Assembly: GCA_963711305.1 (NCBI GenBank)
Contig: CAVQDT010000007.1
Span: 589,246-653,245, forward strand
DNA length: 64,000 nt
From: an uncultured Pseudomonadota bacterium
GTDB taxonomy: Bacteria > Myxococcota_A > Polyangia > Fen-1088
Direction of reading: 5' to 3'
Part shown: piece by piece, positions 1,353 to 22,645 of the stretch
Numbering within the stretch: the first letter of the stretch is position 1
How the letters are laid out: the number at the start of each line of letters is the position of its first letter
Notes under the pieces: generated by a model
The model's input: only the letters and a program-made list of their open reading frames with translations
What the model was told of the DNA's origin: nothing
Databases searched by the model: none
Program-made: the position numbers and the translations under genes

Positions 1353-4081
<2,729 letters not shown>

Positions 4082-4197: not shown

Positions 4198-4988
4198 ATG
4201 ATTGACGGAAAAAAGATCGTCGTGGTCATGCCCGCCTACAACGCGGCGCAGACCCTGGAACGGACCGTGTCCGAGGTGCCCGCCCTGGTCGACGAGATCA
4301 TCCTGGTCGACGACCGCTCGTCGGACGACACCGCCGAGATCGCGCGCCGGCTGGGGCTGCACACGCTGGTCCACGAGAAGAACCGCGGCTACGGCGGCAA
4401 CCAGAAGACCTGCTACACGGCGGCGCTCGAGCGCGGGCGCCGACATCGTGGTCATGGTCCACCCCGACTACCAGTACACACCCAAGCTGGTCCCGGCGCT
4501 GGCGCACTGTGTGGCCAGCGGCCTCTACGACGTGGCGCTGGGCTCACGCATCCTGGGCGGCGGCAGCCTGAAGGGCGGCATGCCCATGTACAAGTACGTC
4601 GCCAACCGGTTCCTCACGCTCGGTCGAGAACCTGCTGCTCGGCGAGAAGCTCTCCGAGTACCACACCGGCTATCGGGCCTTCTCCCGAAAGCTCCTGCTG
4701 ACGCTGCCGCTGCAAGAGAACTCCGACGACTTCGTCTTCGACAACCAGATGCTGGTGCAGGCGGTCCACTTCGGCTTCCGGATCGCCGAAGTGACCTGCC
4801 CCACGAAGTACTTCGAAGAAGCGTCGTCGATCGGCTTCGCCAAGAGCGTCCGCTATGGGTTCGGCGTGCTCGGCGCGGCGGCGCAGTTCCGCCTCGCAGC
4901 GCCTGGGGATCGGGCACCCGCGCTTCCTCGCCGCCGACGGGCAGCGCCTCACAGACCCGGGGCGCGGCCCGCAGGCTCGAACGGATAG
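4198..4988 (+). CDS. Family-2 glycosyltransferase, Dpm1/polyprenyl-phosphate sugar synthase-like (two frame breaks)
   Basis: [46 protein letters not shown]. After breaks near 4436 and about 4625 it continues [44 protein letters not shown]. The 3-prime end is taken from ORF 4749-4988; an alternative frame ending at 4998 reads [10 protein letters not shown]. Confidence 0.75.
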
Positions 4989-6654
4989 TCGATCGTGACC
5001 GCGTCGTTGACCTGACGCGGCTGGTAGGACGCGCCGGGCTCGCGGTGTTCGAGGAAGTACACCGCCTGGTTGAGCGCGGGCAACATCACGCGCCCCGAGA
5101 CGAAGCCGCGCGAGAAGTCCATGTAGCGGCCGATGGTGTCGGTCTGCCAGACCGAGGAGACGACCTCGAGGTGGCTGTGAAACGCGGCCAGGTCGCGCAC
5201 GATCGGCACCATCACGTGAAAGAACTGGGGAGCGAGCGCGGGATAGCACTCGGGGCAGGTGCGGCCGTAGATCGGGTTCACGCGCTCGGTGCCGCCGCGC
5301 GTGGCGATCGCGGCGTTGCACAGGCCCCACATCTCGATCGGCGCGGCGTCGGTGTAGTACGCGAAGACGCCGCCATAGTCGGTGACCAGGCGTGCGCCCG
5401 GCGACAGCGCCCAGGTCAGGATGCGCGCGGCCGACTTCAGATTCTTGACGTGGCTCCCCTGGTCGGCGGCGATCGCCAGCTTGGTCAGTTGCAGCGGCTC
5501 GGTGGTGATGTGCCGCTCGGTCCGGTGCACGACGAACGCCATCGCGGCCAGCGGCAGTAGCAGACAACACCAGCGACGCGCGCCCGAGCCAGCGACGGAG
5601 CGCGCCGGCGATCCACTGGCCGCCCCACGCCGCCAGCACCAGCGCCACCGGCAGCAAGCGGCAGCAGGAAGCGACCGTAGGGCATCCAGTCGCCGCCGGC
5701 GCGCACGACGTAAGCCAGGTGCAGCGCCACGAACGCCAGCAGCAGCAGCGCCGCGATCCGCTTGCGCGCCGCCAGCGCCAGCAGCGCGAGCGGCGCCAGC
5801 GCCAGCGAGCCGTTGGCCTCATCTCGTCGCGCACGTACTCCCAGCCGCGGTGGGGCAGGAGCTTGGGGATCAGCGCCTTGGCGTAGTAGGTCGTCGGCAG
5901 CGGCAGCCCGTAGTAGCGCCAGCGCCAGAGGAACCAGAGCCCGTAGACCAGCACGCCGGGCGCGGCCCAGACGACGTAGTCGCGGACGGTGCCTTCGCGG
6001 CGCCACAGCCGCCGGAAGAGCTCGAAGCCGAGGATGAACCCCAGCGGAATGAAACCGTCGATGCGCGAGAGCGCGACGCCGACGAACGCCGGCACGACCC
6101 AGCGTTGGCTCGCGAGCGCGGAGTCGCCGGCGCCGACGGAGGTCGCCCACGCCCACAGGGGCCTCGATCGAGCGCACGTAGAGCCAGAAGCCGAGCATCA
6201 GGAACGCCATCGCGGGCAGCGTCTCGAGGCCCATCAGGAACGCGGTCCCCATGTCGGCGGCCAGCGCCAGCACGACGAGCACCGCGATCGCCAGCGGCCG
6301 CGACGCGCGCGCGCGCGCCAGCCGGTAGGTCGCGAATCCCAGCAGCGCGACGAACGGGATCGCGGTGGCGCGCGCGACCAGCAGCGGATCGGCGCCGCGC
6401 GGGCTGACCAGCAGGCCGATCGCGACCGCCACCATCCACAGAAAGTTCGAGTAGCCCTCGACGCGCTCGCCGTGGCCGTAGACCGGCCCGTGCCCGGTCG
6501 CCAGGTTCTTCGAATACGAGAACGTGATGTACGCGTCGTCGATCGCGATCGGCGTGAGGATCCGCGTCTCCCAGATGAACAGCGCCGCGACGGCGAGCGC
6601 CGCCAGCAGCACCACCACCGTGGCGGGCTTTATGTTCACGCGCCCCGGCGACAT
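4949..6654 (-). CDS. Polytopic membrane protein, GT-C-type glycosyltransferase candidate (several frame breaks)
   Basis: Pieces of ORFs 5485-7710, 4614-6095 and 4949-5542. Start ATG 6654 gives [26 protein letters not shown] (TM1), then [23 protein letters not shown] in the first outside loop. Many further hydrophobic segments follow, then a soluble C-terminal domain (4949-5542). An acidic DD motif right after TM1 is typical of ArnT/PMT/arabinofuranosyltransferase-like GT-C enzymes. Confidence 0.6.
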
Positions 6655-8935
6655 GCGCGTCGGATCAGGGCGGCGGCGGGTTCGGCGGACCGCCGGCTGA
6701 TCTGCCGCGGGTGCGTCATGCGCAACCCCCAGCTCATCAGCACGCGGTCGTTCTGCGCCGTCGAGAACCCGCGCTTGGCGACCGCGAACGGCGGCTTCAT
6801 GTCGACGACGCCGAACTGGCCCGAGAGCAGCGCGTCGGTGACCTTCTGCCGCTCGCTGCCGTCGATGCGCGTCGGATCGCTGAAGAACAGGATGTACTCG
6901 GCGTCGAACACCGAGAACCGCAGCGTGTAGGCGACCGGCCGGTTCGAGATCTGCGGCACCAGGTTGTCCGACGCCGACACCGTCGCGCGCGGCGGGATCA
7001 ATTTGACGATCTCGGCGAACGTCTTGCGGTCGTTGAGATCGCGCGCCGTGGTCTCGAAGTTGTAGAGCGAGAAGCCGCCCTTGGCGGTGTTGCGCTGGAA
7101 GATCGCGCCCGACTGATAGCTGACCGGCACCATCGCGCACACGAGCGCGAACAGCGCCGCGCGCTTGTTCACCAGATACTCGCTGTCGGTGAGGCGCGGC
7201 GAATTCTTGCGATCGAGCACGTAGATGAGCCCGATCATCAGGAAGACGGTCCAGTAGAACGTGTACTGGAACGAGGTCTGGATGAGCGGCATGTAGCCGG
7301 TCGACAGCACCGTGAAGAAGAAGCCGGGGACGATCAGCAGCAGCACGATCGGCCGCTTGAGCGGGATGAACGCCAGCGGCACGAGGTACTGCAGCATGTA
7401 GAGCAGCTTCTCGCGCTCGAGCAGCGTGTGCAGCGTGTAGAACGGGTTGCCGAAGACCGTCTTGATGACGCCGCCGAAGTTCTGCTGCCCGACCGGCTCC
7501 AGATCCTTGTAGAAGGTGATGAAGCTTTCGCCGCCCAGCACCAGCGGCATGAAGACCATCTTCAGCAGGCAGAAGTGCAGCCCGCCCGACGATGGCCAGC
7601 GCCAGACCGACGCGCGGCCGCTCGCCCGACATCAGCAGGAACGCGCCCAGCGTCGCGACGCCGGCGCCGCCGATGTCCTCGCGCACCGAGAGCGCGAGGA
7701 TCGTGAACACGATGCCCCAGCGATCGTGGTGCGTCTCGAACAGGTAGAGCGTGGTCCACAGGAAGAACGCGCCAAACGGGATGTAGTGGAACTCGTACAG
7801 GTTGGCGCCGTGGTTCGGCGGATAGAGCAGGTAGCAGAGCGCGATCAGACACGCCGGCCCACGCGCCCAGGTGCCGGCGCGCGACGAGAAACAGCGGGAT
7901 CGCCGCGACGCCGATCATCAGCGACTGGATGAACAGCAGCGTCGCCGCGCCCTGCGACAGCGCGTAGAACGGCGCGATCACGTACGAGAAGAAGGTCGCG
8001 TGGTTGCCGAAGTGCGAGCCGGTCGGCCCGCTGAACGGCGTCGAGCGGAAGAAGCCGATCCCGTGCAGGACGTTGTAGACCAGGTTGTCTTCCAGCCCCA
8101 GGTCGTAGGCCGCCGTGCGCAGGTTGTGGTGGAACGTGATCGTGTAGGTCGCGAAGAGCGCGGCGTAGGCAGCGCTGGCGACGACGACGATCACCAGCGG
8201 CAGGCGCGGCCAGCGCCGGCCGGCGAAGATGTCTCGCGAGCGGAGCGCAAGCGGCGACGCCAGGCCTGGGCGCGCGGGCCGGTAAAGAGCGGCGGGGTCG
8301 ACAGGTACGCGCGCATCGCGGTGCGCGCGCACAGGCTGAAGATCGCCACCATGAACAGGAACGTGAAGTCGCGCCCGTTCCAGGTGCGCCACCGAAACAG
8401 AAACGGCACGAAACCGACAAGAGCGACGGGCGACACGCGCTTCGCGACCTGGAACAGGCGCTCGGCGCCGCCGGTCGTGCGGATCTTCCGGTAGTAGAGC
8501 AGCGACGCCAGCGCCGCGATCCCCGCGCAGCCCGCCATGACGCCCAGCAGGAACATGCGGCCGGTGTTGCCGAAGAAGTTGCTGAGCAGGAAGGGCTCGG
8601 TGTTGCCCTTGATCGCCAGGAGGCCGAGGACCATGCCGACCGACCAGCCGACGAGCGCGAGCAGCCCGAGCGCGCGGCAGAGCAACGTCAGCTCCGGCAC
8701 CGCGGGCGCCGCTGCGGCGCGGCGTCGCGACCAGCGCCTGACCGGCACAGCTTCGGGCGGGCGGATCGGCGTGATTGGCTCGCCGCCGCCGACGTGCTCG
8801 CTGACTCGGTGCGGCGACCGACGAGCTCACCAGCGACGGTGACGGAGCAGCGGCGGTCTCGCCGGCAGGCGCCGCGGCGAGCTCCTCGCCGGGGATGGCG
8901 CCCTCGGCGCCTTTCGGGATCAGGGGTCCGGTCAT
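6636..8935 (-). CDS. DUF2079-type polytopic membrane protein (several frame breaks)
   Basis: Start ATG 8935 overlaps the upstream stop (ATGA at 8935-8932). Pieces of ORFs 7562-9562, 8191-8748 and 5485-7710, plus intact 6636-7559. Motifs [45 protein letters not shown] and the C-terminal [30 protein letters not shown] match my memory of the DUF2079 family. Confidence 0.65.
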
Positions 8936-9938
8936 GTCGTTCGTCCTGCCTGGTCGGTGGGGTGGGCCGACCCTAGCAGATTTTCCCCCTCCGCTCGGAA
9001 GTTGAGCAGCTCCGAGATCGCATACAGCGGCCGGCGCTTGACCTCTTCGTAGATGCGCCCGACGTACTCGCCCAGGATGCCCATCACCAGCAGCTGCGCC
9101 GACGATCCGAGCGCGACCAGGATCATCAGCGTGGTCCAGCCCGGCACGGCGCGCTGCCGAACACCTTGACGTAGAACGCCCAGATACCGACGCCGATCGC
9201 GGCGAAGCCCGACAGTACGCCCAGCCAGGTCGCGAAGCGCAGCGGGATGATCGAGAACGACGTGATGCCGTCGATGGCGAAGCGCAGCATCTTGCGGAAG
9301 GGGTACTTGGTCTCGCCGGCGAAGCGGCCGGGCGCTCGTACATCACCGCGATCTGCTTGAAGCCGACCCAGGCGACCATGCCGCGCACGAACCGGTGCTG
9401 CTCGCGCAGCGCGCGCAGCGTCAGCACGACCGGACGGCTCATCAGTCGGAAGTCGCCGGCGTCGACCGGGATCTTCACGCCCAGCATCGCGCGCAGGAAG
9501 CGATAGAAGAGCGCGGCCGTGAGCCGCTTGAACCAGGTCTCGCCGTGGCGCTTGGCGCGCACGCCGTAGACGACGTCGTAGCCCTCGCGCCAGCGCGCCG
9601 AGCATGTCGCGCACGACCTCGGGCGGGTCTTGCAGGTCGGCGTCCATCACCACCACCGCCTCGCCGTCGGCGCGGTCGATCCCGGCGGTGATCGCCAGCT
9701 GGTGGCCGAAGTTGCGCGACAGGCCGATCACCCGGTAGCGCGGCTCGCGCGCCGCCAGCTCGCGCAGCATCTCGCGCGAGCGATCGCGCGAGCCGTCGTC
9801 GATGAAGACGACCTCCCACGACTCGCCGACGCCCTGCCCGACATCCGCCAGGAAGGCGCGGAGGCGGCGGTCGAGCTCGGGGATGATCTGCTCTTCGTTG
9901 AAGATCGGGATCACCAGCGACAGCGTCGGGCGGGCCAT
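8932..9938 (-). CDS. Polyprenyl-phosphate glycosyltransferase, GtrB/ArnC/CsbB-like GT2 (three frame breaks)
   Basis: [64 protein letters not shown]. After a break at about 9598 it reads [66 protein letters not shown], followed by two C-terminal TM segments ending [20 protein letters not shown]. Confidence 0.85.
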
Positions 9939-9982
9939 GAATTGGCGGCGGATACTACCTCAGGCCGGGTAGCGAGAGCGTG

Positions 9983-11895
9983 TCAGCCCGGTTGCGAGAG
10001 GCGCGCGGCGACCCAGGCCCGCCCGCGGGCCATCCGGTCGGGCGTCAGCCAGCGCAGGGCGGCGATCGCCAGCCCGATCCCCAGCAGCATCGCGACCACG
10101 CCGGCCGCCAGCGCCGGCGGCCGGTGGCGCAGCACCAGCCGGTTGTGGCCCGCCGGCATCGCCACCGACAGCAGGCCGACCGGCGGGGTCGGGACCTCGC
10201 CGATGACGCCCGACGACCTCTGCCATTGGTGGTGCGCGCCGACGAGATAGGCGCCGATCTGCGCCGTGGTCGGGCCGGCCACGATCTGCCAGCCGCTCTC
10301 GTAGTTCTGGTTGACGATCACCACGCCGGGCGCGTTCAGCTTCACGTCGAGCTCGACCCGGTTGGGCGTCCAGCGCAGCGGCGCCACCTGCCCGGCCGCG
10401 GCCGGCTCGAGCCACTGCTGCGGCACCTTGCCGTCGACGATGCCGGGCGCCGGCTTCCAATCCAGCGGCACGTAGCACTGCCGCGTGCCGATGCCGCGCA
10501 CCGGGTGGGTGGGGAAGCGCCCGTAGTCGGTGGCCGCCTGATAGAAGTCGGCCGACGCGCGCTCGCGCGTGAGCGGCGGGTCCATCCCCTGCTGCAGCCG
10601 CACCTGGTTGGTGGTGCAGACGTCGACGGCGATCACCACCACCAGCAGCACCTGGACGAGCTCGAACGCGCGCTGCAGCCCCGGCCGCAGCCCGGCCTCG
10701 GCCATGCGCGCGCGCGCCGCCATCAGCGCCGACGTCACCACCAGCGCGAAGCCGACCATCGCCGGGCCCAGGAACCGCGAGGGCACGCGCAGCGACGTGT
10801 AGATCGGCAGCTCGTGCAGCAGGCCGAACGCCGACGGACCCGGGATGTTGCCGAGCGCGCACCAGATCAGCCCGGCGAGCAGCAGCGAGATCGATGCGCC
10901 GCTGGCGCGATTCACCGTCGCGGCGCGACCAGGAAACGACGGCGACCAGGATGCCGGCGGCGAGCAGCGCCGACCGGAATGACCCCGACGTAGTCGGCGA
11001 ACTCGTCCCAGACGTAGGGGTGGCCGGCGAAGGCGCGCTCGTGCATGCGCAAGGTCCAGGTGCGCAGCACCTCGCCCAGCGTCATCTGGTCGTCGAGCGG
11101 CACCAGGCGCGGGTGCTCGCGCAGGTAGCGCAGCACGGGCAGCAGGCGCGCGCCCGCCAGCAGCGGGAAGAGCACGCCGAAGATCGCCAGCGACGGCAGC
11201 ATGCGCGCGCCGGTCGTCCGCCGAGCCGAGCCGCGCGAGCACCTCGATCGCCAAGCCCGACCAGCATGAGCGGGATCGGATAGGTCGCGCCCTCGTAGAA
11301 CGCGACGCGCGAACAGCGCCGCGACCAGCACCGCCCAGCGCGCGTCGGCGAGCGAGCGGCGAAACGCCCACAGGATCGTCGGGAAGAAGAGAAAGGGCGT
11401 GAACGACAGGTGGCCGCCGCCGGTGTGCCAGGCCACGAAGCCGCAGGCCGCGATGATCACCGCGCCCAGCAGCTGCTCGGCGCCGTTGCCGCCGCGGTCG
11501 CGGATCAACGCGCGCGCGCCCAGCGCGCCGGCGATGAAGTGGGTGAGGATCCAGACCTTGATCGCCGCTCCCGTCGGCAGCCACCAGAACGTCAGCAGGA
11601 AGATCGGCCCGGGGAACGGCGACTGCGGGTCCTGGTACAGCACCAGCCCGCCGCAGTGGTAGGGGTTCCACGACGGGAACTGGTGAAAGTCGGCCAGCGC
11701 CACGCGCGCCGCTTCCCAGGCTTCGCCGAAGTAGCGCCAGTCGCTGGTCGAGCCGAGACGATTGAACGACCACTGGCAGGTGGCGCGGCTGATGTGGCCC
11801 ACCGGGCAGTCGACGATCGCGGGCGCGGCCAGGCCCAGCGCGACGGCGACGCACGCCAGCGCGACCAGCCAGGACCACCCACGGCCGACGTGCAT
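9983..11895 (-). CDS. YfhO-like polytopic membrane protein (GT-C candidate; about two frame breaks)
   Basis: ORF pieces 10912-12048 and 9983-12271. Start ATG 11895 gives MHVGRGWSWLVALACVAVAL. FPSWNPYHCGGLVLYQDPQSPFPGPIFLL resembles the YfhO N-terminal motif. The C-terminal NQNYESGWQIVAG...AMPAGHNRLVLRHRP followed by a final TM is the usual YfhO-type ending. Confidence 0.5.
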
Positions 11896-12397: not shown

Positions 12398-12551
12398 ATC
12401 GAGACGGAAAACTCGATGTGACAACTGTGTCGCCGGCGTTCTACGCCGCCAGCGTCATGCTCAACACCATCTCATTGACCTCCCGAGCGACCCAGATCCA
12501 TCGGCTGCACTGACCGCAAAGGGGAAGATTTCCGCTACACCGAAGGATAGG

Positions 12552-15014
12552 ATGCGGCGGTTTGAACGCCCGATGATCGAAGCCGCCGACAGCGCCCAGC
12601 ATCCCCCGAACGCGTCATCCGGTTCATCGGCGCAGCCGGGCGTCGATCAACCGCGATCGTCGCTGCGCGCGCTGCTGCGCTTCTGGCGGCCGGTCCTGCT
12701 GGCCCTGTTGTGCCTGGGCGCCACGTTCGAGCTCGCGCCGTTCCTCGGTCGATTCACGCCCGTCGCGAGCTGGATGGCCTGGAAATTGGGGCTGATCTGG
12801 TTCTGGGCGCTGGTGCTGGCGGCGGCGTGCCTGGGCCTGGGCAACGCGATCTGCAGGCGACTCTGGGGCGACGCCGCCGAGGGCTCCGCGCTGGAGCGCC
12901 AGGCGCTGGCGATCCCGCTCGGCGCGATCGCGTTCGGCACGATGATGTACGCGGCGGGGGCGCTGCACCTGTTCCACGCGCCACTTGCGGTGCTGCTGCC
13001 GTTGCTGGGGATCGCCGTGGGGCTCGGGCGCTCGCCCGCGCAGCGACTGGCGCGCTTGAGGGTGGCGCGCTTCGTGGTGAACGCGCGAGATCTGCCGGTG
13101 ATCGTGTTCGGCCTGCTCTCGCTGGCGCTGATCCTGCTGCACGTGTTCAACCCCGACGCGCCCAACCACGACGCGCACTGGACCCACGTCGTGATCGCGC
13201 AGGACTACGCGCGCGAAGGCCACGTGATCGAGCAGCGCGCCGAGTGGGCGAGGAACTTCCCCCACTTCGCCAGCCTCTTTTACACCTGGGCGTTTCTGGT
13301 GCCGGGTCTGAGCTTCCCGCTCCGGATGCTGCTGGTGATGCATATCGAGCTCCTCTTCTTGATGGGAACGCTGGTCGGCGTGAGCGCGGGCGCGCGCTGG
13401 CTGGCGCACGCGTCCGACGGTGAGCAAGCGAAAGACCCGGGCGAGTCCGGCGCGACCACGGCCTGGGTGTCGTTCTTTCTGTTCCCGAGCATCTTCGTCT
13501 ACGACAGCGATCTCGGCGGCTCCGCGGATCACGTCGCCGCGCTGTTCGCCGTGCCCATGTTCTTGGCGATCGTGCGCGGCACCGAACGGTTCTCACCGGC
13601 CCTGTGCGCGGTGGGCGGCGCGCTGGCAGGCGCGGCGTTCATCACCAAGTACCAGTCAGCCTATCTGACGGCGCCGCTCGCGGCGCTGGTCGCGTTCCGC
13701 CTGGGACGGGAGGCGTGGCGCCGCTGGCGCGGGGGCGCGCAGCGAGTCGAGGACTGGCGGCGCGCCTGGCTCGCGACGAGGTGGATGCTGCTCGCAGGCA
13801 TCCTCGCGGCCAGTCCGTTCTTCCTGGAGAACCTCTACTTCCACCACAACCCGGTCTACCCGTTCCTGCAGCAGGTTTTCACCGGCAGCCGGCCCACCTT
13901 TGCCAATGCGCCCTTCCTGGTGTCCCACGTGCTCACGCCCGGCGGCTTGCGCGGCGACGGACTGACTCTCGGTCACAGATTGCTCGATTCGCTGGGGATG
14001 GTCTTTGCCTTCTCTTTCAATCCCCACTACTCGTTTCTGGGCCAGCGGCCCTACGTCGGATTCCTGTTCACGTTGTTGTCGCCGTTGGCCGTGCTGCTGG
14101 CGCGCGGCCAGCGCCTGCGCATCGGTGCGCTCATGGCGGGCGGCGCTCTGTTCGCCTGGGCGATGACCTATCTCGTAGACCGCAATCTTCAGATCATCAT
14201 GCCGATGCTGGTCGCGGTGACGGCGGGGATCATCATCGCGGTTTGGCGCACGGGGTGGATAGCACGCGTGGGCCTGGTGCCGTTGCTCTTGCTCCAGGTC
14301 GCCTGGGGCGGCGACCTGATGTTCCAGGGCTACCTCGGCGGCGCGATCGAGCACATTCGCAACGGAATCGCGGGCAAGGTCGATGTGCGCGAGACCTTCG
14401 CGCGCAAGGCCATGAATCGGCTCATCCCCAGGGACGGCAAGGTGGTGCTGCACGCCGGTCATGTCTCGCTCGGGCTCGATCGCGAGGTTTTGAGCGACGA
14501 GATCGGCTTTCAGGGCCTCATCGACTACTCGAGCCTGCGCACGCCGCGCGAGCTCTACGACCGGTTCCGCGCATTGGGGGTGACCCACGTAGTATGGGTC
14601 GAGGGAGCCGATCCGGGACCGCACCTCCAGCGCGACATCGTGTTCTACGCGCTGGTGAACGCGCTGCCCTCCAGCAGCCACGGCCCCTACTCGATGGTCG
14701 AGCTGCCGGCGACGCCCCCACCGGCGACGCCCCCTTACCGTGTGCTCTCGCTGGGAATCGGCGGGCACGCCGACGGCATCTACCGGGTCGACGAGATCAG
14801 CCGGTGCGAGCTACAGCCCCCGGGCTGTAGCCCCGCCGCGCCGGCCGTCGGGGTTCAAGGCCCGGCCACGGCCGCGATCCTCGATGCAGGCATCGACGCA
14901 GCAATTGTGGCGCCGAGCTATCTACTGGACCCGGCGGTCGCGGCGGTGCTCGACCAGCGGTTCGTGCGCGCGCGTGCGGGCGCTCCCTATGGGCTCTACT
15001 TGCGACGCCGATAA
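12552..15014 (+). CDS. 820-aa polytopic membrane protein with soluble C-terminal domain (paralogue A; GT-C-like candidate)
   Basis: Intact ORF. More than 10 hydrophobic segments, acidic loop FNPDAPNHDAHWTHVVIAQDYAREGHV, FLFPSIFVYDSDLGGSADHVAALFAVPMFLAIVR, NPVYPFLQQVFTGSRP, FSFNPHY. It is collinear along its whole length with the gene at 15098-17537. Confidence 0.8.
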   Translation: MRRFERPMIEAADSAQHPPNASSGSSAQPGVDQPRSSLRALLRFWRPVLLALLCLGATFELAPFLGRFTPVASWMAWKLGLIWFWALVLAAACLGLGNAICRRLWGDAAEGSALERQALAIPLGAIAFGTMMYAAGALHLFHAPLAVLLPLLGIAVGLGRSPAQRLARLRVARFVVNARDLPVIVFGLLSLALILLHVFNPDAPNHDAHWTHVVIAQDYAREGHVIEQRAEWARNFPHFASLFYTWAFLVPGLSFPLRMLLVMHIELLFLMGTLVGVSAGARWLAHASDGEQAKDPGESGATTAWVSFFLFPSIFVYDSDLGGSADHVAALFAVPMFLAIVRGTERFSPALCAVGGALAGAAFITKYQSAYLTAPLAALVAFRLGREAWRRWRGGAQRVEDWRRAWLATRWMLLAGILAASPFFLENLYFHHNPVYPFLQQVFTGSRPTFANAPFLVSHVLTPGGLRGDGLTLGHRLLDSLGMVFAFSFNPHYSFLGQRPYVGFLFTLLSPLAVLLARGQRLRIGALMAGGALFAWAMTYLVDRNLQIIMPMLVAVTAGIIIAVWRTGWIARVGLVPLLLLQVAWGGDLMFQGYLGGAIEHIRNGIAGKVDVRETFARKAMNRLIPRDGKVVLHAGHVSLGLDREVLSDEIGFQGLIDYSSLRTPRELYDRFRALGVTHVVWVEGADPGPHLQRDIVFYALVNALPSSSHGPYSMVELPATPPPATPPYRVLSLGIGGHADGIYRVDEISRCELQPPGCSPAAPAVGVQGPATAAILDAGIDAAIVAPSYLLDPAVAAVLDQRFVRARAGAPYGLYLRRR

Positions 15015-15097: not shown

Positions 15098-17537
15098 CTA
15101 ACGACGCAAGTAAACGGTGAGCTTGCTGTTACCGTTATATGTTAGCTCCCTCTGAAATTTTTGACTCAGAGCCGCGTCGAGCGCCGCCGGAGGGTTGACG
15201 CCCGGCCCGACCAGGACGGCGTTCACGTGATCGATGATGTCCGGCTCTGCGGCCGAGGCAGGGGTTGCCGATATCGCGGGCGGTGGAAACCGACTGTAAA
15301 AGGGCTCGATCACACCCATCGCCTCTATGGGATAGACGCCATCGGAGTATCCGCCAAGCCCCAGGCTGAGCACCCGATACGGCGCCTCGACGGGAGGCGG
15401 ATCGCTCGGCATCTCGATCACCTCATATCCCCCTTCGTGAATGACGTTCTTCCCGAAGCGATCGATCAACGCGAGGAACAAGACTTCCTCCTCTTTCGAG
15501 AAGGCCACCCATACGCCACGCTCATGAACAACATGAGTTATGCCGTGCGACCGGTAGAGGTCGTAGACGTCGCGCGGCGTCTTTAGGCCGCGATAGCTGA
15601 TGAGGCCCTGAAATCCGGCCAGATCTTGCAGCACTTTTCGCTTCACGCCCAAGCTAAGGCGCGTGTTGTGAAACAGCAGGACGGCATTGGGCGGGAGAAC
15701 CTTGCTGAGCGCCGTCTCCGCGGCCATGTACCCGCTAAAGCGAGTCTTGGCTCTCCCCTCGTAACCGCTCTTGATCATGTTGACGGCGTCGAACGAGCCG
15801 CTCGTACCCCGAGAAGAAGAATGCGTCGCCGGTCGAGACCACCTGCATGCCCACGAGCGCGATCAATCCCGCACGGGCAACCCACCCGAGCTCCCAAGCC
15901 CAGACAATGATCGCCGCCGTGACCGTCGCGAGAAGCGGCACGAAGGTCTGTGCTTGGCGGTCAATGATGTACAGCCACGCCCAGGTGAACACCGACGCCA
16001 GGCTCATCAATGCGAACACCAACAGCCGCTTTCGTCCCTTCAGGAAGGGAATCGTTGGCAGTAGCAGCGTGAACAGCGAGCCGATGACTCCGACGTTTTT
16101 GGACGAAGCGTAGTGTGGATTGAAAGAGAACGTGAAGGTGGTCTGGAGGGCCATCCACACCCTGACCAAAAACGGACCTTCGGGATGAAAAGGTCCCGCT
16201 ACCGAAAGCTGATTCGGAATATCGGGCATGGGCCGACTGCCCGAAAACAGTTCGAGCATGAACGGGTAGACCGGGTTTCTGTAGAAAATCCAGTTCTTGA
16301 GGAAGTGGGGCGCGCTGACCAAGGCCCCCACCGCGAGCACGGTCGCTGGACCGCGCCAAAGGCGCGACCTCTGCACAGAGCCCTCGCGGTCGAGCCCGGT
16401 GCCGAGAAGGAACCAGCGGATCCCCAGCAGGGCAGCGATGGGGACGAAGAAATACAAACTCTGATATCGGGTCAAAAGCGCGCCGGCTGCGAGGATCCCA
16501 ACCAGGACGCAGCGTCGCGGAGACAAGTCGACCGACGCGCGCAATGCGGCCAGGAAGAGCGGCACCGCGAAGAACGCCACCACGTGATCCGCGCCGCCTG
16601 TCAGGTTGCTGTCGTAGACGTAGATGCCCGGGAAGAGAAAGAACGCGGCCCATGCCCCCTTGACCTGGGTCCGTTCGAGCAGCCAAGCCACACCCGCCGC
16701 AACGCCGACCAGTGTCCAGATGAACAGGCAAAACTCGTTGTGCAGGGCCAGCATCCAACGCAGCGGCTCATTGAGCCCAGGGACCAACCAACCCCAGGTG
16801 TAAATGAGGCTCGCAAGGTGCGGATAGCACTTCGGATAGTCGGCTGGAAAAGGGACGATCCTTCCCTCACGCGCGTAGTCTTGCGCGACAGTTAGATGGT
16901 ACCAGCGCGGATCGTAGTCGATCGCAGCGGGCGTCAAGCTCTGCAAATAAAGCAAAAAGAGACAGATGGCACCGGCGACGACGGCAACGTTCGACAAAGA
17001 GATCAAAGGCGACGGCGGCACCGGATCGGTCGCCCCTTTGACGCGCGCATCGCGCGCGAACCGTATCAGCTCGGGCCCGCCCACGAGGATCATGACTACG
17101 GGCAACCCGATTGCGAAGGGTGCTCGGTAAAGGGACAGCGCCCCCCCGGCGTACATTCCCATCGTGAAGGCGACGACTCCGATCGCCGCGCTGGCAGCCA
17201 GCGTTTCGAGCACCGGGAGGCCGCTCACCTTCAACCAGCGCGCGAGCACGTAGTGCCCAAACGCCAGATAAGCAGCGTTGAGCAACGCGCACCAACACCA
17301 CAGGACCAGGAGCCTCCAGAACAGCCAGTCACTGATGGCGTAGACGGAATTGACCGAAGCGGCGAAAATTGCCACGCCCACCAGGCACAGAACCGCCACG
17401 ATGGCCGCTCGAACCGTGCGACGCGACAGCGCGGCAGCCAGCGATTGACCCAACATGGTCGGCACCATACCCAACATTCCTGCGTAGGTTAAGTCCGAGG
17501 AGGAGACCGTTCGACTGCGTGGCGACGGCTCGGCCAC
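15098..17537 (-). CDS. Polytopic membrane protein, paralogue B of 12552-15014 (one frame break near 15785)
   Basis: ORFs 15735-17537 and 15098-15778 join. Motifs: IDYDPRWYHLTVAQDYAREGRIV, FLFPGIYVYDSNLTGGADHVVAFFAVPLFLAALR, NPVYPFMLELFSGSRP, FSFNPHY, and the C-terminal LQDLAGFQGLISYRGLKTPRDVYDLYRSHGITHVV...YRVLSLGLGGYSDGVY...YLRR, which matches paralogue A. Confidence 0.75.
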
Positions 17538-17561
17538 GGAATGTTCCGGTGCCGTGAGCCG

Positions 17562-18197
17562 TCAGGCTGGCGCGCGGGCCCACGAGATCAGGGCGAGCCG
17601 CGTCGCGGTCGGCTTGACCGTGATCTGCTCGAACCCAGCGCGCGAAAGTCCGCGCATCAGGGATTCGCGGGAGAACCGCGTGGGGTGGATGTCGCGCCGG
17701 GAGAACCCCGACCGCCGGGCTATCAACTCGAGCACGGTCGACTCGAGCGCCGGCAGCCACGGCTCACCGTAGTTGGGCGTCGACAACCAGAGCCGGCCCC
17801 CCGCCACGAGAGCGCTGCGCAGCCCGGTCAGCCACGCCGGCCACGCCAGCACGTGCTCGATCACCTCCTTGGCGTAGATCGCGGCGAAGCGGCGCCCCAG
17901 ATCGATCGGGGCCTCTGGCACCACCACGGTCCCACCGGTGATCCGGGAATCACCGCGCGCCAGCACGGCGTCGACGGCGCGCTCATCGATGTCGGCGACG
18001 TGAAACGAAAGGCCGCTCGGCGCCGCATCGATCTCGTGGAGCAGGCCACAACCGACGATCAACACCTCGCCAGCCGGGTGCTCGGCCGCGACCCGGTCGA
18101 GGAACGCGCCGAGATCGCGCTCGAGCGGCTGGTGATACAACGTCCAGGGAAATCGCCGGGCGCGCGCGTGGTTCGCGAAGTAATCGGTCGTGCTCAC
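17562..18197 (-). CDS. Class I SAM-dependent methyltransferase
   Basis: Intact ORF. VLIVGCGLLHE (motif I-like), FAAIYAKEVIEHV, GGRLWLSTPN. Confidence 0.8.
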   Translation of the reverse strand: MSTTDYFANHARARRFPWTLYHQPLERDLGAFLDRVAAEHPAGEVLIVGCGLLHEIDAAPSGLSFHVADIDERAVDAVLARGDSRITGGTVVVPEAPIDLGRRFAAIYAKEVIEHVLAWPAWLTGLRSALVAGGRLWLSTPNYGEPWLPALESTVLELIARRSGFSRRDIHPTRFSRESLMRGLSRAGFEQITVKPTATRLALISWARAPA

Positions 18198-18198
18198 C

Positions 18199-19131
18199 CT
18201 AACCCTTGGTTGGCCTTTCGGCTATGGAAGGTCGGTTGCCTCTGCGATGATCAGGTACTCGTACGCGGTCGGCGAATCGGCCGGAACCAGTGGATCCGAT
18301 AGCGCCCAGCGCACCAGCTTGACCGCGGGCTCCAGCATCGCGGCCGGAAGAAAGCGCGCCAACCGGGATGGATAGAATCCGGTCACCTGTCTTCGCGAGG
18401 AACTCGGCGAACGCCGGCGGCATGAACGCGCGGAACAAGAACTCCGAGCGCGCCGAGCCGAGCCCGTGGATCGCCCGGACGCGCCAACCATTGTGCGTCA
18501 GTAATCCGGTCCAGACCTTGGCGTCGTAGAGGTGCCAGTGCTGGAAGAAGCCGTTGAGCGCACCGGCAATCGTCATCGCGAGCCGCGGCGCGTGGTTCAG
18601 CAACCAAGACTGTACGTGGCCCTGGAACGCCCACCGCGGCGTCGGCACGAACATCAATAGGCGCGCATTGGGCGCCGCGGCTCGGCGAAGGTTGATCAAC
18701 GCGGCGTCGATGTCGGGCACGTGCTCGAGCGAGCAGTTGCCGATGATCTCGCGAAACGAGACCTCGGGAAATGGCTGCTCGCGCGAGACATCGGTGAGGT
18801 CGGCTTGAATTCGCGTCTTGGCCTGGGCGATCTCGACCGCCGAGATGTCGACCCCGTAGACCTGGCGATGATCCGCGTCGCGCAGCGTCCACCAGAAGCC
18901 GTCTCCGCAGCCGACGTCGAGCACCGGGCCGCCCCTGCTTCCCAGGGCCTCGATCGCGATCAGCCGGTTGATCTCGCGCAGCGTGAGCGACAGCGGCGCG
19001 TGCTTGAGATACTCGCGGATCCAGCGATCGAGATCGTCGCTGTTGACTTCTTGGGCGTGACCAGACGGCTCGGTCGCCATCCCCATGACCTGGTCGGTAT
19101 CCGCGAGTGCCATGCCCCCTTTCAATAGCAC
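18199..19131 (-). CDS. Class I SAM-dependent methyltransferase (C-terminal frame break near 18400)
   Basis: PVLDVGCGDGFWW (motif I), REIIGNCSLEHVPD, NARLLMFVPT. The tail continues more plausibly in the frame of ORF 18222-18491. Confidence 0.75.
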   Translation of the reverse strand: MLLKGGMALADTDQVMGMATEPSGHAQEVNSDDLDRWIREYLKHAPLSLTLREINRLIAIEALGSRGGPVLDVGCGDGFWWTLRDADHRQVYGVDISAVEIAQAKTRIQADLTDVSREQPFPEVSFREIIGNCSLEHVPDIDAALINLRRAAAPNARLLMFVPTPRWAFQGHVQSWLLNHAPRLAMTIAGALNGFFQHWHLYDAKVWTGLLTHNGWRVRAIHGLGSARSEFLFRAFMPPAFAEFLAKTGDRILSIPVGALSSGRDAGARGQAGALGAIGSTGSGRFADRVRVPDHRRGNRPSIAERPTKG

Positions 19132-19175
19132 GCCCGGTTCTGACGAGGGCGAAACTCTCTGCGACTGCGAGCGCG

Positions 19176-20828
19176 TCAGCCGCTGCAGCCGAGGACGCGC
19201 AGGATCTTGATCTTGGTCGTCGACGAGCCGGGCGCCGGGTAAGCGACGCTACCGTCGGGGAACGAGCGAAAGTCCTGGTAGCGGCTGCCGAGCACGTTGG
19301 GCGTGAGCTTGAGCGGGCCCGCGGTGGTCGCGTTCGCGCCCGCCGGCATCATGCCGGTGGTGCCGTCGAGGATCTGGATCGACATCTGCCGGGCCGCGTT
19401 CTGCGCGAAGTCGCCGAGCGCCGTCGAGCTCTCCCACGCCGCGAGCATCTGCGTTCCGGTGGTGCCGTACGGCGCCAGGTGCGGCGCGCGATCGTTCTGG
19501 CCGTCGCTGACGGCGATGATGTCTTTGTCCGGCATCGGCGTCGATACCTTGGTCACGTGCAACAGGTGAATGTCGGCCATGCCGTTCGCGTTCGCCGGCT
19601 GCCCGGCGCGGATGTCGCTGGCGAAGATCCAGTAGCCGCCGCCCATCGCGTTGATGACATTGCCGATCTGGTCGTAGTTGAGGTCGATCGGATCGATCGC
19701 CGCTCCGTTGGGCGCGAACGCGATCTTCCCCGACTTGCCGCCGGTCGGCGCGTCGTTCTTGCAGACGTTGACGAAGACCTTGCTCGTCGGATCCCAGACG
19801 ATGCGCTCGTAACCGCTGTGGCTGCAGCCGAAGCTGAAGCCCGGCGTGGTGAGCAGCGCGCCGGTGCCGCCATTCACGGCCTGCATGCGATCGCCCTGGT
19901 GAATGTTCACGCCGGTGGTCATCGTGCTCGCGCCCACGCACGCCTGCCCGGGGACGGTGATCGCCGCGCCGAAGTAGCTCGCGTAATTCGTGCCGTCGAA
20001 CGCGATGCGGCCGTTGTGCGCGTACTCCGACCAGATGAAGATCACGTTGCCGCCACCGGTCGGCCCGGTGCCATACGCAGGCACGGTCGCGGACGTCTGA
20101 GTGAGCTTGGTCGCCCACGCCTCGGTGGTGCCGTTGAAGCGCACGATATAGAGGTCGTAGCAGGAGGCCGCCGTCGGATAGTTGGCGACCAGTCCGCAGA
20201 GGTTGTTGATGTTGCCGCAGTTGTGGTTGTCGGTGGAGCCGAGCGCGTTGCGGCTGAGCAGCATCACGCCGCCGGTGGCGTCGGCGTAGATGTCCTGAAA
20301 GTCGAACGCCGGCAGCGCGAACGCCGCGCCCGGGACCGGCTGATCGTTCGCGTCGAGCGTCACCACGTGCGCCATGCTGTCGGTCTTGCCGAGGAACGCG
20401 AGGCGCGAGCCGCCTCCGGGAATCGGAGAGATCGCGAGCGGCGTCAGACCCAGCGCCGCGCCGTTGTTGTCGACCTCGTTGTAGGCGTAGGTCACGCCGA
20501 CGTCGATCTCGGTGACGCGCACGCGATCGGCGAGCGCGGTCGAGCACCCGGTCGTGCCGCCCGGGCCAAGGCTACCGCCGACGCCCGTCGCGCCGCCGCC
20601 GCCGGTCACACCGCCGCCGCCCGTCGTCGTGCTGCCACCGAGCCCGCCGTTGTTCCCTGCGGTTCCGGTCGAGCCGCCACCGCCTCCCTGACCACCGTTG
20701 GTCGTCGAGCCACCGCCTTCGCCGCCGGTCGGAAGACCGCCGACGTTGCCGGGACAGCCGGTCCCGAGCGCGACACCGGACGCGAGAAGCAGGAGCACGG
20801 ACACATTCGACCAGACAGCTCGGCACAT
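19176..20828 (-). CDS. Lipoprotein with Gly-rich linker and a domain I cannot assign
   Basis: Intact ORF 19176-20909. I prefer the start ATG at 20828, preceded by GGAGG (20841-20837). MCRAVWSNVSVLLLLASGVALGTGC is a lipobox, followed by about 75 residues of G/S/T-rich linker and an approximately 450-aa domain (NHNCGNINNLCGLV, IFIWSEYAHNGRIAFDG, FGCSHSGYERIVWDP). Confidence 0.75.
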   Translation of the reverse strand: MCRAVWSNVSVLLLLASGVALGTGCPGNVGGLPTGGEGGGSTTNGGQGGGGGSTGTAGNNGGLGGSTTTGGGGVTGGGGATGVGGSLGPGGTTGCSTALADRVRVTEIDVGVTYAYNEVDNNGAALGLTPLAISPIPGGGSRLAFLGKTDSMAHVVTLDANDQPVPGAAFALPAFDFQDIYADATGGVMLLSRNALGSTDNHNCGNINNLCGLVANYPTAASCYDLYIVRFNGTTEAWATKLTQTSATVPAYGTGPTGGGNVIFIWSEYAHNGRIAFDGTNYASYFGAAITVPGQACVGASTMTTGVNIHQGDRMQAVNGGTGALLTTPGFSFGCSHSGYERIVWDPTSKVFVNVCKNDAPTGGKSGKIAFAPNGAAIDPIDLNYDQIGNVINAMGGGYWIFASDIRAGQPANANGMADIHLLHVTKVSTPMPDKDIIAVSDGQNDRAPHLAPYGTTGTQMLAAWESSTALGDFAQNAARQMSIQILDGTTGMMPAGANATTAGPLKLTPNVLGSRYQDFRSFPDGSVAYPAPGSSTTKIKILRVLGCSG

Positions 20829-21019
20829 CGGGACAACCTCCGAAAGAAAAGACTCGCTCGGCGCGACGGGCAACGTGACTTCCCCCTCAGGAACACACAC
20901 CTTCCCCATCCTACGCCGGTGGGCACTCCCGAAGTCACTCGCGCCGTCGGCGCCAGCTCAAGATTGAGGTCTTCGAGCGGCGCGTCTGCGCGACGGAAGT
21001 GATGTAGGGTCTTGGCCAA

Positions 21020-21794
21020 ATGGACCTGAACGAAGTCCCGACGACGCCGTTTCGGCGGCACCCCTGGGAGGTCGCGCGCGCGCGATTTTTCGGAAAAGTC
21101 GTCGCGGAAGCGCTCCCGGCCGGCGCGCCGGCGCGCGTGCTCGACGTCGGAGCCGGCGACGGATACCTCGCGCGCTCGCTGCTGGGCGGGATTCCTGTCG
21201 GCAGCTCGGTCACATGCGTCGATTCGAACTACACCGACGCCGAGCTCCAGCGGTTCGCGTCGCCACCGACAGCCGGCTTGTCGTTCACGCGCGCACGGCC
21301 CGCTGGACGCTTCGATGTGATCTTGCTCCTGGATGTGATCGAGCACATCGCCGACGACCGCGCCTTCCTCGACGACATCCTCGGCGCCAGCCTCGACGCG
21401 AACGGCCTGGTGGTCGTCAGCGTGCCGGCCTGGGACCTGCTCTACGGGCAGCACGACCTGGCGCTGAAGCACTTCCGCCGCTACCAGCCGGCGCAATGCC
21501 GCGCGCTGCTGCAGGCCGCGGGCCTGGAGATCGTGCACGACGGCGGGCTGTTCCACAGCCTGCTGCTGCCGCGCGTGGCGCAGCGAATCGGCGAGGCCGC
21601 GCGCGGCGCGCTGCGCTTCGGGAACGGCGACGAAGCCCGCCAACCTCGGCGAATGGCACGGCGGCGAGCTGCTGTCGTCGCTGGTGACGCTGGCGCTCGA
21701 GGCCGACACGCGGCTGTCGACGCGGCTCGCGCGCGGCGGGCGCGATGTGCCGGGCCTGAGCTACTTCGCGCTGTGCCGGAAAGGATCCGCGTGA
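21020..21794 (+). CDS. Class I SAM-dependent methyltransferase (one frame break near 21620-21650)
   Basis: RVLDVGAGDGYLARSL (motif I), FDVILLLDVIEHIADD. After the break it reads EWHGGELLSSLVTLALEADTRLS...FALCRKGSA, with stop TGA at 21792-21794. ORF-track entry 21020-22645 is a read-through fusion with the next gene. Confidence 0.7.
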
Positions 21795-22645
21795 CCGATC
21801 GACCCGACGCGCGGCACACCGTGCCGCAGGCTTCGCTCGACGAAGGGGATGCGGATGCGCGCCGCACGGACGGCCTACGGTCGATCCTGGTCGTCCCCTG
21901 CTACAACGAGGCCGCGCGGCTCGACGACGACGCGTTGCTTTCGCTCGCGGGCGGCGAGTTCCCGGCGACGCGGCTCTTGCTGGTCGACGACGGATCGCGC
22001 GACGACACCGGCGCGCGCCTGACCGCGCTCGCGCATCGCGCGCCCGGGCGGATCGAGACCCTCGCGCTCGACCGCAACCGCGGCAAGGCCGAGGCCGTGC
22101 GCCAGGGAATCCTCGCCGCGCTCGCGAGCGGCGCCGACGTCGTCGGCTACTTCGACGCCGACCTCTCGACGCCCGCGTCGGAGATCCGACGCCTGCTGTC
22201 CCTCCTCGACGAGCGGCCCCAGATCGCCGTCGTGATCGGCGCGCGCATCTCGCTGCTCGGCAACGACATCCAGCGCAGCCACACGCGCCACTACCTCGGC
22301 CGCGTGTTCGCGACGCTGGCGTCGCTGATCCTGCGCGCGCGCGTCTACGACACCCAGTGCGGCGCCAAGCTGTTCCGGCGCTCCGACGCGCTCGCGGCCG
22401 CGCTGCGCGAACCCTTCCTCTCGCGCTGGTCGTTCGACGTCGAGCTCCTCGGCCGCCTGCTGGTCGGCGACGCGAGCACGCCCGCGATCTTCGAGCGCCA
22501 GGTCCTCGAGGTCCCGCTGCGCTCCTGGCGCGACGTCCCCGGCTCGAAGCTGCGCCTCGGCGCCATGGCCGGCGCGCTCAAGGACCTGGCGGAGATCGCG
22601 GGGGATCTGTCGCGGAGGCGAAGAGAGGCCGAGCGCCGGGGGTAG
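21791..22645 (+). CDS. Family-2 glycosyltransferase, dolichyl/polyprenyl-phosphate beta-glucosyltransferase (ALG5)-like
   Basis: GTG 21791 overlaps the upstream stop (GTGA). ILVVPCYNEAARL, LLLVDDGSRDDT, DRNRGKAEAVRQG, GYFDADLSTP, YDTQCGAKLFR, SRWSFDVELL. Confidence 0.8.
   Translation: MTDRPDARHTVPQASLDEGDADARRTDGLRSILVVPCYNEAARLDDDALLSLAGGEFPATRLLLVDDGSRDDTGARLTALAHRAPGRIETLALDRNRGKAEAVRQGILAALASGADVVGYFDADLSTPASEIRRLLSLLDERPQIAVVIGARISLLGNDIQRSHTRHYLGRVFATLASLILRARVYDTQCGAKLFRRSDALAAALREPFLSRWSFDVELLGRLLVGDASTPAIFERQVLEVPLRSWRDVPGSKLRLGAMAGALKDLAEIAGDLSRRRREAERRG

Follow-up and report, generated by a model that had tools for sequence, protein, structure and literature searches.

What is the task of a locus in which three glycosyltransferase genes lie among five genes for large membrane proteins and three methyltransferase genes? 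The question is raised by positions 4,198 to 22,645 of a 64-kb stretch of DNA (hereafter the window) from an uncultured bacterium of the Polyangia (contig CAVQDT010000007.1), in which an earlier note, made from the letters alone, had listed three GT2 genes, five large membrane proteins, three methyltransferases and one Gly-rich lipoprotein. All of these were found at coordinates within a few codons, with lengths of 567–820 amino acids (aa) for the five membrane proteins, and the twelve genes are here named G1 to G12 (Table 1). Genes for Wzx/Wzy, an ABC exporter, an initiating phosphoglycosyl transferase or nucleotide-sugar synthesis were absent from the translations of the whole 64 kb and from the gene and Pfam tables of related loci, as the earlier note had reported for the locus itself. 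We conclude that the locus probably specifies a multi-branch system for glycosylation outside the cytoplasm that depends on a lipid carrier.

Glycosylation by a GT2 enzyme and a GT-C enzyme that share a lipid carrier is known from O-antigen seroconversion, lipid A modification, teichoic acids, streptococcal protein glycosylation and the mycobacterial wall. To our knowledge, no such system has been characterised in Myxococcota, and a literature search on GT-C systems returned nothing that was specific to Myxococcus or to any other myxobacterium. The common logic has three components, namely the loading of a sugar on polyprenyl phosphate, a flippase and the periplasmic transfer by a GT-C enzyme (PMC11127046). 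In the present work, all locus proteins were mapped onto ten related loci (given as L002, L003 and so on), of which L002 and L003 are short-read contigs of one close relative with approximately 92% DNA identity to the window.

Polyprenyl-phosphate glycosyltransferases

By sequence comparison, the assignment of G4 as a polyprenyl-phosphate glycosyltransferase of the GtrB/ArnC/PgfS type is secure, as a type assignment that implies no sugar specificity. The protein matched Pfam Glycos_transf_2 at 2.9e-34 (118.8 bits, cut-off 23.3), and a search of the PDB aligned it with GtrB (5ekp, 2.5e-83) across residues 5–316 of 339, with ArnC at approximately 1e-45. In NCBIfam, the matches were to PgfS at 3.6e-77 (259.6 bits, equivalog cut-off 500) and to ArnC at 2.7e-48 (164.6 bits, cut-off 529). 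A C-terminal transmembrane (TM) hairpin is indicated by TM-like segments at residues 234–295.

G1, which has no TM segment, matched Glycos_transf_2 at 1e-21. Its best NCBIfam match was AglJ, which together with PpgS scored approximately 2e-18 (66 bits against cut-offs of 325–370), and a dolichyl-phosphate (Dol-P)-hexose transferase family followed at 2e-17, all below the curated cut-offs; in the PDB, a Dol-P-mannose synthase was found (5mlz, 3.5e-9). G1 is thus likely a Dpm1/PpgS/AglJ-like polyprenyl-phosphate-sugar synthase. For G12, a Glycos_transf_2 match of 6e-20 was accompanied by PDB similarity to ArnC (approximately 6e-8) restricted to the N-terminal half and to GpgS (1e-4), and by NCBIfam matches to PpgS (2e-10) and ArnC (3e-10), neither of which reached an equivalog cut-off. 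The earlier note had placed all three GT2 proteins in the Dpm1/GtrB/ALG5 type. This holds for G4 through its full-length GtrB match and is likely for G1, while the weak ArnC similarity of G12 does not establish a role as donor synthase.

Five polytopic proteins with predicted GT-C folds

All five large proteins, G2, G3, G5, G6 and G7, are polytopic according to hydropathy and to the helix maps of the G6 and G5-orthologue models, in line with the approximately 7–13 or more TM helices expected of GT-C proteins. G6 gave no Pfam, NCBIfam or meaningful PDB sequence match, either as a single sequence or as a 65-sequence profile. Its 90 homologues (clustered at 90% identity) are all named 'hypothetical' and come from Polyangia or Myxococcales metagenomes, and a scan of a genome collection with G6 yielded one locus, which was non-syntenic. 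The AlphaFold (AF2) model of G6 (predicted local distance difference test (pLDDT) 89.5, predicted template modelling score (pTM) 0.90) has a GT-C core, preceded by four additional helices at the N terminus and followed by an alpha/beta domain at the C terminus. When this model was searched against the PDB with Foldseek, the top 19 matches were all GT-C enzymes (STT3, AftA, ArnT, PglB, DPY19 and EmbA/B/C; probability 0.94–1.0), after which the list continued with unrelated transporters at a probability of approximately 0.1. G7 is a paralogue of G6 (38–39% identity) and shares 52% identity with a 780-aa gene of L008. The latter scored 20.4 bits (6e-4) against PMT_2, below the cut-off of 26.1, while G6 and G7 themselves had no match to the PMT_2/ArnT-like family (PF13231) in Pfam, and three of the 90 homologues carry a precomputed PF13231 annotation. 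On fold and sequence together, G6 and G7 are best treated as a separate, previously unannotated GT-C family.

A second model, that of the G5 orthologue P0091 (AF2; pLDDT 86.2, pTM 0.90), likewise returned only GT-C enzymes as its top 10 Foldseek matches in the PDB, and STT3 was the top structural match for both models. Within the G5 family, 25 of the 54 members matched Pfam YfhO (PF09586) at E ≤ 0.01, with a best value of 1.2e-7. Neither the stitched G5 of the window nor P0091 matched YfhO in Pfam, and G5 had no meaningful PDB or NCBIfam match. G5 can accordingly be described as a putative divergent YfhO-type GT-C protein. Among the Pfam families that the earlier note had anticipated, Glycos_transf_2 (G1, G4, G12) and DUF2079 (G3) were thus recovered, PMT_2 was not found for G6 or G7, and YfhO was found only in relatives of G5.

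The family profile of G2 matched AftB in the PDB (9dlf, E 5.9e-9), and the alignment pairs a DD...GxGPV...E block ('DDayItfs..GhGPv..EGYSnFLW' in G2, 'DDGLIVL..GNGPV..ERVEANTSTVW' in AftB). G2 has no Pfam match of its own; many of its homologues have been named 'arabinofuranosyltransferase' by the Joint Genome Institute, and the NCBIfam AftB model NF041481 was matched at 3e-6 over the N-terminal 250 residues only. With a score of 25.5 bits, where the cut-off is 1050, and with no UbiA-type or DprE1/E2 genes of the decaprenyl-phosphoribose pathway seen in the translations of the window, G2 was ruled out as an AftB orthologue. It is regarded here as AftB-like by fold and motif resemblance, and because the genes for an arabinose donor are missing from the window, its donor is probably a hexose or N-acetylhexosamine (HexNAc) provided by a GT2 enzyme rather than arabinofuranose.

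G3 matched Pfam DUF2079 (PF09852) at 2.9e-49 (168.8 bits, cut-off 28.2; the match covers positions 2–421 of the 459 in the profile). We take this family to belong to the GT-C clan of Pfam. A literature search on DUF2079 found nothing, and the G3 profile gave no sequence match in the PDB and no specific assignment in NCBIfam. This profile is shallow, since a metagenome scan with G3 returned close relatives only. The protein carries an extra N-terminal membrane segment of approximately 220 aa, for which a fused GtrA-like flippase was considered and dropped for lack of support from Pfam.

GT-C enzymes had been expected to show conserved acidic residues in the loop that follows the first core TM helix, and such residues were found. 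In the G2 family, D39 and D40 are invariant and follow TM1. D51 and E60 are invariant in the first loop of the G5 family, and in the G6 family D207 and W210 are invariant and D218 is present in at least 90% of the members, all three following the helix at 178–199. These acidic loop residues of the G2, G5 and G6 families would face the outside. For G3, the comparison covered only four close orthologues, in which D290, E294 and D295 are conserved. Comparison of profiles with hhalign detected no relationship of G3 with G2 or G5, nor of G6 with G2 or G5, and the five proteins therefore fall into four sequence families that are joined only by fold. The GT-C nature suggested by the earlier note is thereby corroborated through the G6 and G5-orthologue models, the paralogy of G7 with G6, the AftB match of G2 and the DUF2079 domain of G3.

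Methyltransferases and the lipoprotein G10

G8, G9 and G11 matched Pfam Methyltransf_23 at 8e-11, 6e-16 and 8.5e-17, respectively, and G9 additionally matched Methyltransf_11 at 4e-11. None of the three has TM segments or a signal peptide.

G10 starts with a lipoprotein-type signal and a lipobox-like ...GTGC sequence, followed by an 84-aa disordered linker (46% Gly, 24% Ser/Thr). The remainder is a domain of approximately 450 aa, in which His, Asp, Arg and Cys residues (and also Trp) are invariant. The protein has no Pfam match, and its profile retrieved nothing meaningful from the PDB. The family is small, with only 200 representatives among 1.84 billion proteins, some of which are fused to RicinB or carbohydrate-binding (CBM) modules. 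G10 is present in every related locus that reaches its position, and the composition of the linker, though not its sequence, is kept in L005.

A conserved core and a variable slot

Across the relatives, the genes follow the order G1, G2, G3, G4, [G5], slot, G10, G11, [G12], where brackets denote genes that are not always present (G12, for instance, had no match in L013 at the E ≤ 1e-20 threshold used). This order adjoins the aconitase gene down to 62% G2 identity and is kept, together with overlapping and coupled genes, in nine related contigs. G1 and G2 are convergent with overlapping 3' ends, the G4 stop and the G3 start also overlap, and intact relatives show a 4-bp overlap between G11 and G12. 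A 541-aa open reading frame (ORF) at 21020–22645 of the window is an artefactual fusion of the latter two, which are separate genes in L005 (7211–7990 and 6375–7214). The sequence comparison points to a core of G1–G4, G10 and G11, usually with G5 and G12, that is conserved across a clade of uncultured Polyangia. The description of the locus as accessory, given in the earlier note, consequently applies to the FG-GAP, G6, G7, G8 and G9 block and not to G1–G5 and G10–G12. In none of the ten related loci does the gene set lie inside a characterised polysaccharide locus; it is always found between aconitase and a two-component system.

The slot, by contrast, differs in content even among relatives whose core proteins are 84–92% identical. 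It is empty in L011 and L013, which also lack G5, and in L005, which has it. A 509-aa polytopic protein occupies the slot in L015 (G5 present), and is joined by a RicinB lectin in L018 (G5 absent) and L010 (G5 present); in L008 and L014, both with G5, a G7-like 780-aa gene is added to these two. The window and L002/L003, again with G5, instead carry an FG-GAP lipoprotein, G6, a gene at the G7 position and two methyltransferases. The FG-GAP gene, with which the slot begins, is intact in L002/L003 (458 aa, Pfam FG-GAP_3 4e-64), and the window copy is a remnant from which approximately 900 bp are missing. G8 is 92% identical to its L003 orthologue and absent from L005, L008 and L010. The 509-aa protein belongs to a family of 507–520-aa polytopic proteins, here called slot509 (L008 3170–4699, L010 3165–4727, L015 5363–6874, L018 3026–4549), which had no match in Pfam or NCBIfam and in which D33, D42 and E46, behind the first TM helix, are invariant; judged from these features, it is probably a further GT-C family.

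The G7 position itself appears to have undergone a recent gene replacement, because the otherwise approximately 92%-identical L002 holds a 40%-identical paralogue there on the opposite strand (L002 12065–14479). G7 has a GC fraction of 0.613, compared with 0.68–0.73 in neighbouring genes. When the surroundings of the slot were searched for repeats, neither direct nor inverted ones were found at its flanks as signs of a mobile element; the long inverted repeats that are present reflect the paralogy of G6 and G7. In the distant L019, a G2-like gene is again found beside a PMT_2-like GT-C gene and a G7-like gene. At L002 ~350–830 (corresponding to window 4311–4638), approximately 330 bp of G1 are missing, leaving a truncated 157-aa gene, which means either that G1 is dispensable there or that the contig is misassembled.

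Proposed mechanism and acceptor

Starting from the computed folds, family types, conservation and slot variability, we infer donors, methylation substrates, a flippase and an acceptor as follows. In the cytoplasm, G4, likely G1 and perhaps G12 would use nucleotide sugars to load polyprenyl (undecaprenyl) phosphate with one sugar at a time. G8, G9 and G11 may O-methylate the sugars before export, since the methyltransferases are cytoplasmic and S-adenosylmethionine (SAM) is available only there. A flippase encoded elsewhere would carry the lipid-linked sugars to the periplasmic face, where G2, G3, G5, G6 and G7 would each pass a sugar to an acceptor in the cell envelope. The use of lipid-phosphate-linked donors by the GT-C proteins is suggested by their co-location with GT2 synthases, and the gene coupling and overlaps support the feeding of G3, G5 and G2 by G4 as well as a joint function of G11 and G12. 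Both the predicted folds and the location of the locus thus agree with the multi-branch extracytoplasmic glycosylation and methylation that the earlier note had proposed.

This scheme resembles the three-component Gtr systems (GtrA, GtrB and a GT-C enzyme) and ArnC/ArnT, in that G4 is a full-length GtrB/ArnC homologue and the GT-C proteins are predicted periplasmic transferases. As in serotype-converting gtr cassettes, the synthase is constant while strain-specific GT-C genes vary. In contrast to these systems, the locus contains neither GtrA, the dedicated flippase that defines Gtr loci, nor ArnE/F; it combines five GT-C proteins from four families, up to three synthases and three methyltransferases instead of one synthase and one GT-C enzyme, and it is chromosomal and anchored at aconitase rather than phage-borne. 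A precedent for the role proposed for G8, G9 and G11 is found in archaeal N-glycosylation by the Agl proteins, which include the Dol-P-hexose synthases AglJ and AglD. There, the SAM methyltransferase AglP modifies a lipid-linked sugar at the cytoplasmic face. Although AglJ is the best NCBIfam match of G1, the scores lie far below the equivalog cut-offs, no AglB/STT3 orthologue was found by sequence and the host is bacterial.

The expected product is a surface glycoconjugate with a strain-variable, partly methylated decoration, and the variability of the slot suggests that this surface structure is under diversifying selection. Its acceptor could be a glycan chain or the Gly/Ser/Thr-rich linkers of lipoproteins; the AftB-like G2, the RicinB lectins of the slot and the fusions of the G10 family to carbohydrate modules point towards a glycan. 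Taken to its furthest extent, the scheme would have this Polyangia clade build or decorate a surface glycoconjugate wholly in the periplasm from polyprenyl-phosphate-linked, partly O-methylated monosaccharides, with strain diversity created by swapping cassettes of a GT-C paralogue, methyltransferases and a secreted lectin or beta-propeller at a single chromosomal hot spot. So specific a version is speculative, and we consider it unlikely.

Alternative explanations

A possible, if not favoured, alternative is protein O-glycosylation, with lipoproteins as the acceptors that the earlier note had suggested, in which the GT-C proteins would modify the disordered Gly/Ser/Thr-rich linkers of lipoproteins (G10, the FG-GAP lipoprotein and the Cys-rich lipoproteins at 22700–26236), comparable to streptococcal Pgf/PgtC2 and actinobacterial Ppm1/Pmt. 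In streptococci, GtrB/PgtC2 and PgfS/PgfM1/PgfM2 are protein O-glycosylation systems (PMC11092751, PMC5836110), in which Ser/Thr-rich disordered regions are glycosylated by GtrB/PgfS together with YfhO-family enzymes, and the acceptors/adhesins are encoded in the Pgf cluster itself (PMC11092751). The present locus shows the same pairing, as the GtrB/PgfS-like G4, for which PgfS is the most similar NCBIfam family (3.6e-77), adjoins the YfhO-like G5, and candidate acceptors with disordered Gly/Ser/Thr linkers are encoded nearby, in the way the Pgf cluster encodes adhesins. The linker composition of G10 is conserved in L005 despite the sequence change, the cassettes of the slot pair GT-C genes with secreted proteins, STT3 leads the structural matches of both models and some relatives of G6 and G7 match PMT_2 weakly. 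However, the linkers are Gly-rich rather than Ser/Thr-rich, and since similar ones occur in several secreted proteins elsewhere in the window, their adjacency carries little weight. The invariant His, Asp, Arg and Cys residues of G10 are typical of an enzyme or binding protein and not of a passive acceptor, GT-C enzymes that modify glycans or lipids (AftA, ArnT, Emb) match the models at similar scores, and the RicinB lectins that share the slot are glycan binders. The locus further differs from the CsbB/GtcA/YfhO and Pgf systems in that G5 itself falls below a Pfam YfhO match, PgfE epimerase and GtcA are missing and the host is a Gram-negative without teichoic acids.

Doubtful, and less probable than protein glycosylation, is a de novo assembly line for a periplasmic glycan or lipoglycan, comparable to mycobacterial lipomannan or arabinan, in which the GT-C proteins would act in sequence on a lipid or glycan primer with polyprenyl-phosphate monosaccharides as donors and methylated sugars as caps. 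A single side-chain modification would not require five GT-C proteins of four families with as many as three donor synthases, GT-C genes co-cluster even in the distant L019, and no Wzx/Wzy or ABC route is present. The locus also shares with the mycobacterial GT-C enzymes (AftA–D, Emb, PimE, MptA/B) the occurrence of several GT-C proteins together, the N-terminal block of G2 and AftB and the resemblance of G1 to PpgS; PpgS and Rv3779 form a mycobacterial pair of donor synthase and GT-C enzyme, which the G1–G2 pair recalls. On the other hand, neither a primer-forming enzyme nor a polyprenyl-phosphoribose pathway nor export or anchoring machinery is encoded nearby, and relatives can do without G5 and the genes of the slot, for which optional decoration is the better fit. 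Addition to a finished polymer is known from the pentofuranose systems, which consist of a polyprenyl-phosphoribose synthase, a MATE flippase and a GT136 GT-C enzyme and act after polymerisation (PMC11127046). These have in common with the present locus a lipid-linked monosaccharide donor and a periplasmic GT-C enzyme, but the locus uses a GT2 instead of a phosphoribosyl pyrophosphate-dependent synthase, has no MATE flippase and lies outside an O-antigen cluster.

Several observations weigh against the lipid-carrier-dependent glycosylation system proposed above, whichever acceptor it serves. G12 has the sequence of a generic GT2, for which another role fits equally well. The called genes of L005, L008, L002 and the window locus include no flippase of the small four-TM (GtrA), small multidrug resistance (SMR) or MATE types, and in NCBIfam the methyltransferases had generic matches only, none to a sugar-specific family. 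The GT-C assignment derives from the AftB profile match for G2, from DUF2079 for G3 and from paralogy for G7. In more distant genomes, genes of the G5 and G6 families stand alone in unrelated contexts, which indicates that the clustering is lineage-specific and the coupling not obligatory. Finally, the frames of 8 of the 12 locus genes are broken as sequenced.

These breaks, which the earlier note had suspected, were located in G1, G2, G3, G4, G5, G7, G9 and G11 by orthologue mapping. In the window, with a GC content of approximately 69%, the raw ORF list was crowded with spurious frames, and genes were placed by a plot of GC at third codon positions (GC3) by frame and a codon-usage Viterbi trace, by stitching of frame segments and by tblastn of intact orthologues. 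The GC3 plot and the Viterbi trace revealed that coding frames switch repeatedly inside single genes along the whole 64 kb, and housekeeping genes are also affected (aconitase, an NtrC-type regulator, a histidine kinase, acetolactate synthase and others, for example at 1355–4090, 27872–31939 and 41084–43378). The differences from the relatives are mostly 1-nt insertions in the window; as they lie outside homopolymers, a homopolymer-type error was dropped as their cause. The insertions are concentrated at 4.2–12.5 kb, and the region at 12.5–18.2 kb is nearly free of them. In L002 and L003, genes are intact at 567, 750, 339, 634, 820, 211 and 302 aa, and intact orthologues of every locus gene were found among the relatives, including the more distant L005 and L008 (for G3, in L002, L005 and L008). 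Because housekeeping genes are broken too and the orthologues are intact, the frame breaks are most likely errors of sequencing or assembly and not a sign of pseudogenisation, and the intact orthologues suggest that the genes are under selection.

That the locus is a chance neighbourhood of independent envelope enzymes, or is decaying into pseudogenes, is therefore very improbable: the solitary G5- and G6-family genes, the broken frames, the truncated FG-GAP gene and the shortened G1 of L002 would agree with it, but nine related contigs, with G2 identities as low as 62%, keep the gene order and coupling, orthologues are intact in the short-read assemblies and all components fit one biochemical scheme.

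Significance

The kind of system proposed here is already known; what is new is the architecture of a composite locus, in which up to three synthases, five GT-C proteins of four families, three methyltransferases and a conserved lipoprotein are combined with a slot for hypervariable cassettes. The G6/G7 family is likewise new and represents an unannotated GT-C family with a confident fold assignment and approximately 90 homologue clusters, and divergent AftB-like and YfhO-like GT-C proteins occur beside it in a Gram-negative. The slot can be regarded as a natural experiment, in which different cassettes of GT-C, methyltransferase and lectin genes are combined with core proteins of 84–92% identity across strains. 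Provided that a surface glycan or glycoprotein is made, this short region would give genetic access to the differences in surface between strains of soil myxobacteria, with relevance for phage, predation and kin recognition. The co-located methyltransferases would further offer a route to asking whether sugars are methylated on the lipid carrier. Should the cassette-swap reading be true, the locus would be a serotype-like or kin- or phage-recognition determinant of a kind not described in Myxococcota. One new GT-C family at the least (G6/G7) would then be involved, and slot509 would probably be another.

Gene map and flanking genes

Table 1. Genes of the locus, with positions in the 64-kb window
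Gene	Position	Strand	Assignment	Length and features	Frame in window
G1	4198–4995	+	GT2 (likely synthase)	265 aa in relatives; soluble	3 breaks
G2	4952–6654	-	AftB-like (putative GT-C)	567–572 aa; polytopic	at least 3 breaks
G3	6708 to ~8935	-	DUF2079 (putative GT-C)	750–764 aa; polytopic	3 breaks
G4	8935–9938	-	GT2, GtrB/ArnC/PgfS-type	339 aa	3 breaks
G5	9986–11895	-	Divergent YfhO-type (putative GT-C)	632–635 aa; polytopic	at least 2 breaks
FG-GAP/VCBS lipoprotein remnant	12131–12468	+	C-terminal part of lipoprotein	~140 aa; from tblastn and blastn against L002	
G6	12552–15014	+	G6/G7 family (putative GT-C)	820 aa; polytopic	intact
G7	15101–17537	-	G6/G7 family (putative GT-C)	~811 aa; polytopic	1 break near 15790
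G8	17565–18197	-	Class I SAM methyltransferase	211 aa	intact
G9	18213–19113	-	Class I SAM methyltransferase	302 aa in L003	1 break near 18390
G10	19176–20909	-	Lipoprotein	Gly-rich linker	
G11	21020–21791	+	Class I SAM methyltransferase	259 aa	1 break
G12	~21791–22645	+	GT2 (generic)	279 aa; no TM	

Upstream, the locus is bordered by aconitase (1355–4090, minus strand), and downstream by genes for Cys-rich lipoproteins and BIM1-like copper proteins, after which a histidine kinase and its neighbouring NtrC-type regulator are encoded. According to the translations, the remaining 35 kb are housekeeping (ilvBN, def, ribA, mrp, ligA, a P450, msrA, dusB and an extracytoplasmic function (ECF) sigma factor), with no flippase gene among them. 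Between G12 and the BIM1-like gene, at 22700–23992 and ~25300–26236, lie lipoprotein-like genes with Gly-rich linkers and Cys-rich domains and no Pfam match; both are absent from L005 and one is present in L013 (74% identity), which makes this a second variable spot. The genes at 26416–27240 (plus strand) and 24167–24874 (minus strand) encode secreted proteins that have the 'YHHCAD' motif in common and in which the signal peptide is followed by an N-terminal His. The former, which is kept beside the locus in L005, has a sub-threshold Pfam match to the BIM1-like copper-acquisition family (1.4e-4), and from these features both proteins may be copper-binding or resemble lytic polysaccharide monooxygenases (LPMOs).

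The region at 27872–31939, whose position is kept in L005, flanks the locus and contains genes for a sigma-54 activator of the NtrC type and for a histidine kinase, both of which are possible regulators of the locus. Segments of ferredoxin-like and metallo-beta-lactamase-like character come after the kinase. Further downstream, at 37781–38769, a Cys-rich lipoprotein unrelated to the locus has a C-terminal domain that, by eye, resembles the PA14/'fibro-slime' type.

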